Source: Gammaproteobacteria bacterium (GTDB taxonomy: Bacteria; Pseudomonadota; Gammaproteobacteria; CBDBBL01). From it: DNA of 64,000 nucleotides. Position numbers and translations under genes: made by a program. Location: contig CBDBBL010000018.1 in the NCBI GenBank assembly GCA_965203125.1, forward strand, positions 162,885 through 226,884, in the 5' to 3' direction. The notes beneath the pieces are model-generated. The model had not been told where the DNA came from. It did no database searches and saw nothing but the letters and a program-made list of their open reading frames with translations. Of this stretch, positions 27,651 through 28,892 are shown one piece after another (position 1 is the first letter of the stretch; the number at the start of each line of letters is the position of its first letter).

Positions 27651-28892
27651 TCATATTTGTGTGTTTAGAGTTATGTGGGAATGAGTGCTGTTGTTTTCTG
27701 TGTGAGGGGTTAATGAAATTGTACATTGAACATGTGATGTGGAGTTTATATCTGGTTTAACTTCTATAGATATATGCGAAAAAGGATGTTGGCAAAAGCC
27801 CTGTGCTGATGTCGATTTTTGAGGAGAAATGTAGCGAGTTGCCCAATTGTTCAATTTACGTTGGAGTGCTTGTATGGACTTGACTTGTCCAATTTCATGC
27901 CTCCCTATCATTTTAACATAGTGTGCAAAATGTGCTACGCTGAGTATGTCCCCTAATGTGTATGGTGTATTTTCTGACCTAATAGCATGAAAGGTTGTTG
28001 CAGTGTTATCGAATAGGATGGTGCTACCGAGGGATGTTGGGCTAAAAAATCCTAGATGTTTAAGTATGTCTGTTTGATTTCTTGTGATAACGTTGCTTAA
28101 ATAAGTTTGTCTATTTATGTTGAAGTGTTCTTGTTGTAATGAGGTTAGCCATTGTTTTTTTATGTATGCTTTCAGGACGGTGGCTATAAAAACATAGGTC
28201 ACATGTATCTGGCTGGTTCGAGAGATTTCTAGTGTGCTTGATGCCATTAATCCCAAAAAATTTAATGAGCTATTTTCTCTAAGATTATTCCATTTTTGAT
28301 AAGGTTTAGATGTGAATAGCTCTTTTGTGTTTAAAGTGACTTTAAAATTTTTATAATCATCCACGCCAAAACACTGTGGCGTAGCTTGTAAAATAAATGG
28401 GCAAAAACTGGCGGAGCCAATTTCGGCTAAAACATTCAAAATAGCAATATCATTAGTTTTAAACACTGGGTTTGGTCCCCTAATATTCACTGAGTAGTCA
28501 ACCAGCATTATCCCAAAAGGTTTCCCTCCAGGGGAGCCAAATTCATCTTCGTAAACTTTCTCAAATAGAGTGGTTTGATCAAATTCAAGACTGCTCTGCG
28601 TATCTTTCGCAATTTCTTTCCAAGTAATAGGCAATGCTTTGATTAAAATATTATCAGCATCAGGATGGTTTGCTTCATGCGTTAATAATTGAAGTCCGAT
28701 CCATGCGGATTGTAAGCGTTGCAGGTCATTGTGTTGTGTGATTTGTTTAAGTTGTGATGCAATCAGTCGATCTAATTTAGCGATGCAGTAAACAAGCTGA
28801 TTTTTAAAGCGAGTGATTGTTGTTTTGTCGGGCTCTGTGCAAATTCCCAGTGCATTCAAGCTGGTTTGACTAATGCTGTTGTTTGTAATCAT
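27651..28892 (-). CDS. Divergent TssC (VipB) paralog
   Basis: 413 aa; blocks EFDQTTLFEKVYEDEFGSPGGKPFGIMLVDYS, GSASFCPFILQATPQCFGVDD and VAHFAHYVKMIGRHEIG align with the tssC product at 25458-26951, but overall much more diverged. Confidence 0.65.
   Translation of the reverse strand: MITNNSISQTSLNALGICTEPDKTTITRFKNQLVYCIAKLDRLIASQLKQITQHNDLQRLQSAWIGLQLLTHEANHPDADNILIKALPITWKEIAKDTQSSLEFDQTTLFEKVYEDEFGSPGGKPFGIMLVDYSVNIRGPNPVFKTNDIAILNVLAEIGSASFCPFILQATPQCFGVDDYKNFKVTLNTKELFTSKPYQKWNNLRENSSLNFLGLMASSTLEISRTSQIHVTYVFIATVLKAYIKKQWLTSLQQEHFNINRQTYLSNVITRNQTDILKHLGFFSPTSLGSTILFDNTATTFHAIRSENTPYTLGDILSVAHFAHYVKMIGRHEIGQVKSIQALQRKLNNWATRYISPQKSTSAQGFCQHPFSHISIEVKPDINSTSHVQCTISLTPHTENNSTHSHITLNTQI

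Follow-up and report, generated by a model that had tools for sequence, protein, structure and literature searches.

What is a second, strongly diverged gene for the large sheath subunit TssC doing in a type VI secretion system (T6SS) locus that already has a regular one, and is it a decaying copy of its neighbor or a component in its own right? The question is raised by a stretch of 64,000 nucleotides from a gammaproteobacterium (GenBank assembly GCA_965203125.1, contig CBDBBL010000018.1, positions 162,885 to 226,884), referred to below as the window and numbered from its first letter. The gene in question (the paralog) lies convergent with the tssB-tssC pair, and a previous reading of this DNA, made from the sequence alone, had left the choice between a decaying duplicate and a functionally distinct sheath-like component. 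As judged from protein comparisons, the paralog is shown here to be an ortholog of the “second TssC” (TssC40/Atu4340/ImpD type) of the imp-type T6SS, and it is probably still functional.

The Paralog and Its Sheath-Protein Signature

The two TssC genes, and the regions recognized in the product of the paralog (aa, amino acids), are as follows.
25458..26951, plus strand: tssC, the main, first-copy gene, 497 aa, with a TssB partner (TIGR03355, 580 bits; 52-58% identity to first copies)
27651..28892, minus strand: coding sequence of the paralog, a second-copy (TssC40/ImpD-type) sheath large-subunit homolog, 413 aa, ATG start (open reading frame (ORF), Pfam, profile scores, tree and AlphaFold 2 (AF2) model)
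28230..28787, minus strand: N-terminal conserved region, aa 36-221, equivalent to the part of TssC that binds TssB and to the beta-sheet of sheath domain 2 (VipB profile 3-179; 24 of 28 conserved positions; omega, the ratio of non-synonymous to synonymous rates, 0.13)
27960..28229, minus strand: degenerate, shortened middle region, aa 222-311, with three deletions of ~33, 23, and 14 aa and with LWGNA, GWxADIRG, and GGxV lost (alignment; 3 of 9 conserved positions)
27654..27959, minus strand: C-terminal gpW/gp25-like domain, aa 312-413, with the beta-hairpin and C-terminal strand of the sheath “handshake” (VipB_2; 15 of 19 conserved positions; modeled strands)

The sequence-only reading was right about the 413-aa ORF, which is real, lies on the minus strand and starts with ATG, and about the 497 aa of the main TssC. 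It was also right in describing the two as related but strongly diverged: the similarity is significant in BLASTP (E=4e-51), with 27% identity in an alignment of 432 columns (18% gaps), and the TssC blocks that it quoted are visible in the alignment. Pfam recognizes VipB (PF05943) at aa 36-221 (E=4e-51, 174 bits versus a cut-off of 27), a match that covers profile positions 3-179 of 301 only, and VipB_2 (PF18945) at aa 312-413 (E=9e-20, 71.5 bits versus a cut-off of 27; profile positions 11-112 of 112), while aa 222-311 have no Pfam match. In the alignment, the paralog begins at the equivalent of residue 64 of the main TssC, its own preceding 35 residues being unrelated, and the N-terminal segment carrying the ClpV-recognition helix, or outer domain-3 helix H1 (for the role of this segment see PMC4239648, PMC5807055), is missing. 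As to the two regions that had been singled out for checking, the region for TssB interaction is therefore kept, with 24 of the 28 family-conserved positions of the N-terminal region, and the region for ClpV recognition is absent.

Placement in the Second-Copy TssC Family

By sequence, the main TssC is of the first-copy type known from the imp-type T6SS of Agrobacterium. Its best annotated matches, 52-58% identical, are the first genes of tandem tssC pairs, in clusters of the order tssA-tssB-tssC-tssC'-(tagJ)-tssE-tssF-tssG, as found in Pseudoalteromonas, Azospirillum, Tistrella, and Rhizobium. The best annotated matches of the paralog are the second genes of the same tandem pairs. Pairwise identity is unable to place the paralog, because the ranges overlap (22-28% to second copies, mostly 23-27% to first copies), and in BLAST it scores 167 bits with its own neighbor, 124-157 with other first copies and 172-177 with several second copies. 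Profiles separate the two types: the paralog reaches 231.6 bits with the second-copy profile versus 162.7 with the first-copy profile, and the main TssC 719.5 bits with the first-copy profile versus 393.8 with the second-copy one. All seven TssB-partnered TssC proteins of single-copy systems used as controls (7/7) favor the first-copy profile, by 29-195 bits, and the second-copy profile is therefore not merely more permissive. In a neighbor-joining tree (a distance method only, with 300 bootstraps, and with the paralog on a long branch), the paralog falls inside the second-copy clade in 300/300 replicates and is paired with the adjacent TssC in 0/300. In the alignment it displays the hallmarks of the second copies, namely an insertion of 5-7 aa after GDY and the Trp of the SWxEL motif (ITWKEI), and further a truncated N-terminus and PH replacing PW near the C-terminus. 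Among its best matches, with two database searches combined, 146 of 153 are second-copy-like, and the TssB-partnered TssC of the locus is of the matching first-copy type.

The searches covered 5.8 billion proteins in a word-indexed mode and 1.84 billion representatives in an exhaustive HMMER mode, and in both just one close relative emerged, P0001 (98% identity), encoded by a 9.8-kb contig of a sister strain (L001; ~97.9% DNA identity to the window). The remaining matches are at most ~43% identical over the matched stretches, nearly all of them split into an N-terminal and a C-terminal stretch. A scan of the contigs of reference genomes retrieved two alphaproteobacterial second copies only (27% identity), and no orthologous locus.

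Profile scores, tree, shared indels and residues, and best matches thus make the paralog, as far as homology can be read from such comparisons, an ortholog of an old paralog lineage and not a duplicate of its neighbor. The word “duplicate” in the previous reading has to be given up, as the tree never pairs the two adjacent genes; “functionally distinct sheath-like component” is the better description, except that the component already has a family, TssC40/Atu4340/ImpD. It is true, as was noted then, that no tssB adjoins the paralog, the neighboring 171-aa ORF (X171) being without TssB similarity, but this absence, flagged at the time as odd, is the norm in the second-copy family.

Sequence Divergence and Lost Segments

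While the second copies are 42-52% identical to each other, the paralog is 22-28% identical to them, and it measures 413 aa versus 462-507 aa in annotated second copies, being the most diverged and the joint-shortest member in this sample. The first of its three deletions removes ~33 aa after PRxLxR and is common to one short form, P0012, and partly to another, P0134; the others remove ~23 aa around GGxV..LP and ~14 aa before the FF strand. Conserved positions were defined as those kept in at least 80% of 104 relatives. The paralog keeps 42 of these 56 (family range 40-56, median 51), and the retained positions are distributed unevenly, with 24/28 (86%) in the N-terminal region, 3/9 in the middle and 15/19 (79%) in the C-terminal region. 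Compensating frameshifts were considered as the cause of the odd middle region and were rejected, since tblastn with eight TssC proteins gave significant matches in the ORF's own frame only.

The extent of the divergence can be put in proportion with mean Kimura distances, which leave the deletions uncounted: 0.93 among second copies, 0.37 among first copies, 1.77 from the paralog to the second copies and 0.66 from the main TssC to the first copies. By these distances, second copies generally evolve at ~2.5 times the rate of first copies, branch estimates derived from them give a ratio of 2.7 in the host lineage, and both the paralog and the main TssC are 1.8-1.9 times as distant from their own family as family members are from each other. 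The divergence is therefore explicable without loss of function: the proportional speed-up of the paralog and of the constrained main TssC points to a lineage-wide acceleration acting on an already fast family.

Selection and Predicted Fold

Between the window and L001, the paralog has accumulated 21 substitutions, with no indel and no stop. The counts are 12.5 synonymous and 8.5 non-synonymous changes, resulting in omega of 0.18 (binomial P=4e-4 against neutrality; P=9e-3 with the expected synonymous fraction raised to 0.30), an estimate from one strain pair with all the substitutions within 28064-28698. For the main TssC, omega is ~0.01 or less. The paralog is under purifying selection. Being intact in two strains, and with no homology hidden in other frames, it does not fit the earlier description as “decaying,” and the internal frameshifts or stops that had been named as the sign of a pseudogene are found in neither strain.

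Strain divergence across the region is mosaic, with the synonymous rate (dS) ~0.38 at 26271-26687 of the main tssC versus ~0.05 or less in the neighboring segments, and with no differences at all between the window and L001 in 27651-28063, a pattern that suggests recombination between lineages. In L001, the main tssC carries a 1-nt deletion in an A4 run (window 26688; L001 ~9355) that splits it into two called genes, the paralog being intact there; the deletion may be a sequencing error in the homopolymer, or else the main sheath gene has been inactivated in this strain.

The AF2 model of the paralog, built from a 106-sequence alignment, predicts a complete sheath subunit (predicted local distance difference test (pLDDT) score 88.3, predicted template modeling (TM) score 0.86), the middle region included, where pLDDT is ~74-95 except for a dip at aa 301-310; the N-terminal 35 residues are of low confidence. 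Foldseek matches the model to VipB/TssC chains over the full length (TM 0.71-0.75, E~1e-22), and the modeled C-terminal strands span residues 371-380, 388-396, and 407-412.

Comparison with Known Sheath Proteins

The closest parallel is TssC40 (Atu4340/ImpD) of Agrobacterium tumefaciens with its orthologs, which are annotated “tssC” in Rhizobium johnstonii pRL12, Pseudoalteromonas pTHAF3_a, Azospirillum AbAZ39_p3, and Tistrella pTM1. The paralog falls into the same clade (100% bootstrap) and has the same profile preference, it likewise has the insertion after GDY and the Trp and lacks the region of the N-terminal ClpV helix, and it likewise occurs together with a first-copy TssB/TssC pair of the same T6SS type, without a tssB of its own. 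Unlike them, it is inverted, with an orphan ORF between it and tssC and with no tagJ or tssE after it, and it is shorter, with three deletions and lost motifs, and scores below the TIGR03355 cut-off. Nearest in the tree are two short second copies from low-GC metagenomic contigs, P0012 (413 aa, L004) and P0134 (426 aa, L005), which have a similarly short N-terminus and, wholly or partly, the ~33-aa loop deletion. The linkage to tssBC is lost in P0134, too. However, these proteins, 27-30% identical to the paralog, keep the mid-domain motifs (51-55 of the 56 conserved positions), and their genes are directly followed by tssE.

With the canonical TssC/VipB/HsiC proteins (PDB 3J9G, 5N8N, 5MXN, 9N4V), the paralog shares the fold and the same two Pfam domains, and the N-terminal TssB-binding region and the C-terminal handshake domain are conserved, but it is ~80 aa shorter, has no adjacent tssB and no ClpV-helix segment, and prefers the second-copy profile. 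The TssCL proteins of roseobacters, in which VipA domains are fused to a VipB domain (PMC9515649), have a second-copy-like TssC part; unlike them, the paralog contains no VipA domain, and X171 is not detectably VipA-like.

The similarity to other contractile machines is remote, the AFP baseplate structure 6RAO giving a weak fold match to the model (E=2e-3, TM 0.35-0.39). Extracellular contractile injection systems possess several sheath paralogs (Afp2/3/4, Pvc2/3/4), one of which is thought to be baseplate-proximal. Unlike the T6SS, the Afp and Pvc machines have neither TssB nor ClpV recycling.

Proposed Role and Alternative Explanations

Hcp secretion in Agrobacterium depends on TssC40 and TssC41 alike, the two being non-redundant, and TssB and TssC41 accumulate without TssC40 (PMC3702570). 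For the canonical TssC, the N-terminal ~212 aa are sufficient for TssB binding (PMC3840085), and the C-terminus drives polymerization (PMC3597794) by way of the beta-strand handshake of the sheath (PMC5807055). The regions conserved in the paralog are just these, the TssB-binding N-terminal region and the polymerizing C-terminal domain, and most second copies, like the paralog, are without the N-terminal stretch of ~50 residues that carries the ClpV-recognition helix.

Two further lines of evidence concern the second-copy lineage as a whole. One is presented by natural fusions of VipA (TssB-like) domains to second-copy-like TssC, of which six are among the top matches of the paralog, corresponding to the TssCL proteins of roseobacters (PMC9515649). 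Such VipA-TssC' fusion proteins measure 610-1116 aa (P0024, P0064, P0069, P0104, P0114, P0120, and P0143, the last apparently with two VipA/VipB units), and they are the reason for which the second-copy lineage can be argued to act as a TssB-type/TssC' protomer. The other is gene order, as second copies directly precede (tagJ-)tssE-tssF-tssG. On L005 (10001-21281; a metagenomic contig with 34% GC), P0134 heads the series tssC'-tssE-tssF-tssG-clpV-DUF6931-?-tssJ-tssK-tssL, with no tssB or first-copy tssC within 10 kb, and the linkage of the second copy to the baseplate genes is thus closer than that to the sheath genes.

In the mechanism that we propose, the paralog would pair with TssB into an alternative protomer, the gene at 24862-25443 being the probable partner of both TssC forms. 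This protomer would join the sheath at a specialized position, by analogy most plausibly the baseplate-proximal one, next to TssE, TssF, and TssG, where the paralog may escape ClpV-driven recycling. We consider it fairly likely that this explanation holds as a whole, that is, a second-TssC ortholog, relocated and diverged but maintained by selection, with a presumed role as a sheath protomer.

A number of observations weigh against it. In the six-frame translation of the 64-kb window, no matches were found to TssE, TagJ, Hcp, ClpV, TssJ, TssK, TssL, TssM, or VgrG, and with TssA, TssB, TssC, TssF, and TssG alone represented the system may be incomplete. The paralog scores 204 bits with the NCBIfam TssC equivalog TIGR03355, below its cut-off of 271.5 (the neighboring TssC scores 580), near-invariant residues of the middle region are gone (the Trp of LWGNA, GWxADIRG, and R321H), its ATG has no Shine-Dalgarno sequence, and the selection estimate comes from the single strain pair. 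As to the role, no established account of a second TssC was found in the accessible literature beyond Lin et al. (2013), and the presumed baseplate-proximal placement is suggested by the order of the genes and by analogy with the multi-sheath contractile injection systems.

Some of these observations would also be expected if the paralog were a relic, a second-copy ortholog already without function, its ORF still unbroken, in a T6SS locus that is being dismantled by insertion sequence (IS) elements and introns. This alternative, which we find unlikely, gains from the loss of the mid-domain motifs and of three segments, from the number of retained positions (42; median 51), which is among the lowest in the family, and from the NCBIfam score. 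It also gains from the surroundings of the gene, which is inverted, unlinked from tssE and has IS fragments and pseudogene-like ORFs upstream, with a mobile element ~180 bp upstream in the sister strain, whose main tssC may moreover be frameshifted. However, a relic should have neither omega of 0.18 (P=4e-4) nor a reading frame free of indels and stops across two strains, and a 413-codon ORF is unlikely to remain open by chance at 42% GC. The N- and C-terminal regions keep 86 and 79% of their conserved positions, the full-length fold is confidently predicted by AF2 and Foldseek, and the main TssC, which is clearly constrained, has diverged in the same proportion.

A more daring version of the proposed role, to which we give little credence, is that the paralog is a minimized second sheath subunit, reduced to the TssB-binding and handshake modules, that serves as an adaptor ring, not open to recycling, between baseplate and sheath and possibly makes up, by means of its gp25-like C-terminal domain, for a TssE that is missing. 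Were this true, the paralog would mark out the minimal functional core of the TssC40/ImpD family and give a lead to what the family does.

Even less probable, in our view, is a re-purposed, trimmed adaptor, whose gp25-like C-terminal domain stands in for TssE, or which works with X171 outside the canonical T6SS cycle. The absence of tssE from its usual place before tssF, the retained gp25-like domain, the specific degeneration of the middle with both ends kept, and the convergent pairing with an orphan of the size of TssB or Hcp, both genes being under purifying selection, could be read in this way. On the other hand, tssE may simply be encoded beyond the 64 kb of the window, neither a fold nor a family can be detected for X171, convergent orientation is no sign of co-expression, and there is no precedent. 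Finally, a recent lineage-specific duplication of the adjacent tssC followed by rapid divergence, suggested by adjacency and by the 167 bits with the neighbor, above the scores of other first copies, can hardly be maintained and is excluded by the profile scores (second-copy profile ahead by 69 bits), the tree (0/300 bootstraps) and the second-copy-specific indels, several second copies also outscoring the neighbor (172-177 bits), while the slight preference for the neighbor over other first copies fits a shared amino-acid composition.

Locus Organization and Genome Context

The other features of the T6SS locus are the following.
20275..23213, minus strand: tssF (21369-23213) and tssG (20275-21372), divergent from tssA (Pfam)
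23273..24637, plus strand: tssA, with an unusual Pro/Gly-rich repeat tail (Pfam ImpA_N; 57-bp tandem repeat at 24494-24618)
24862..25443, plus strand: tssB, small sheath subunit (Pfam T6SS_VipA, E=3e-57)
27051..27566, plus strand: X171, orphan ORF of 171 aa between tssC and the paralog, in the usual hcp/tssC' slot (ORF)
~27594..27625, no strand assigned: bidirectional hairpin resembling an intrinsic terminator, common to the paralog and the convergent X171 (folding energies)
28899..28907, minus strand: putative extended -10-like box TGcTACAAT, 6 nt before the ATG of the paralog (read from the sequence)
29068..29075, no strand assigned: site at which L001 carries an insertion, a 3.1-kb IS fragment with a group II intron, ~180 bp upstream of the ATG of the paralog (blastn of L001 versus the window; L001 gene table)

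The gene order is tssG and tssF on the minus strand, the divergent tssA, tssB, tssC, and X171, and then the convergent paralog. For a second copy this position is atypical, as the gene is convergent, X171 lies between it and tssC, and tssF-tssG are found beyond tssA, with no tssE before tssF. The best explanation is that the paralog was inverted and severed from tssE by rearrangements in a locus rich in IS elements and introns. A tssE remnant was suspected at 30784-31032 (phmmer E=0.0014) and was discarded, having no Pfam support in a region full of IS fragments.

Housekeeping genes flank the locus (mnmG, hemA, prfA; aroK, pilQ), and mobile DNA is found nearby, represented by a group II intron and by IS6/IS240 and IS256 fragments. 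The next relative of MnmG is just 68% identical, and the host is therefore an uncharacterized, deep-branching gammaproteobacterium. The element with the intron is found in the window at 11937-15030 (reverse transcriptase/maturase gene at 12908-14434; Rfam intron domain at 14438-14524), and it is 99.9% identical to the L001 copy (3875-6968 of that contig) that is inserted at window 29068-29075; given this identity, it must have moved recently. Upstream of the paralog, a truncated IS6/IS240-type transposase fragment is located at 30585-30809 and an IS256 transposase without its first ~100 residues at 32607-33398, followed at 34557-35765 by a PilQ-type secretin that is rather short (402 aa), all on the minus strand. 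With its IS fragments, the short PilQ and small unassignable ORFs (29-32.5 kb), the region looks like one undergoing gene erosion.

Expression Signals and the Orphan ORF X171

The bidirectional terminator that the sequence-only reading placed between the paralog and the gene in the hcp position is borne out by folding energies, the hairpin reaching -21.8 kcal/mol on the plus strand (z=-7.6) and -16.3 kcal/mol on the minus strand (z=-4.9) versus shuffled controls; U-runs flank it on both sides, and it is kept in L001. A consensus terminator scan did not list the hairpin at 27594-27625. Likewise, the TGcTACAAT box was not called by a two-hexamer promoter scan; the insertion in L001 falls upstream of this box. 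A TATAAT-like box that ends 6-8 nt short of the start codon, unaccompanied by a Shine-Dalgarno sequence, is seen in the paralog (28899-28904), in tssF (23221-23226 region) and in mnmG (19881-19886 region). This recurrence hints at leaderless mRNAs for operon-first genes in this organism, and a leaderless start is possible for the paralog, judging by its upstream region.

X171 has no match in Pfam, NCBIfam, or PHROG. Its only homolog is found in L001, with 3 substitutions (omega ~0.16), and the ORF has AGGGGG upstream, a good Shine-Dalgarno sequence. AF2, run on the single sequence, gives no usable model (pLDDT 33). Two identities were tried and rejected: a divergent Hcp, with no BLAST or hhalign signal, and a divergent TssB, prompted by PDB matches to HsiB1 at E~1, with no BLASTP or hhalign support.

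Other Features of the Window

The tail of TssA is Pro/Gly-rich and encoded by ~2.1 copies of the 57-bp tandem repeat at 24494-24618 (PPPMDFGPPPPPMGGGFGGMG...). Such a tail is unusual for TssA and resembles proline-rich sequences of the profilin-binding type; two overlapping antisense ORFs, 24224-24892 and 24361-24609, are probably spurious and due to the repeat. A much larger repeat, with a 342-bp unit present 16.1 times at 98% identity (52366-57860), extends through three ORFs (50878-52860, 52857-54725, and 54649-59127) for very large surface proteins of the immunoglobulin (Ig)-like/Big_3 type, with a local GC of ~0.51 versus 0.42 for the window. The breaks between these ORFs may be real or may result from assembly collapse or expansion. 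Directly upstream, at 49046-50854 on the plus strand, is a gene for a protein with an inverse-autotransporter (intimin/invasin-type) beta-domain, and together with the Ig-like ORFs it suggests a host-adhesion locus. A transfer-messenger RNA gene is located at 36958-37331 on the plus strand, with the tag peptide ANESDYGVMAQAA.

Significance

The paralog is best described as a probably functional, diverged, loop-trimmed, and relocated member of the known TssC40/ImpD family. A pair of TssC-family proteins is a feature of many T6SS clusters of the Agrobacterium/Rhizobium/Pseudoalteromonas type. The second member is essential in Agrobacterium, and the one described here is the most reduced and most diverged second copy seen so far in this analysis. 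It also illustrates an annotation pitfall, since the gene, its product scoring below the NCBIfam cut-off, is easily taken for a pseudogene or a stray duplicate by anyone unaware of the two-copy architecture. As its N- and C-terminal modules have been kept while the middle has drifted, the paralog provides a natural deletion map of what a second copy needs.

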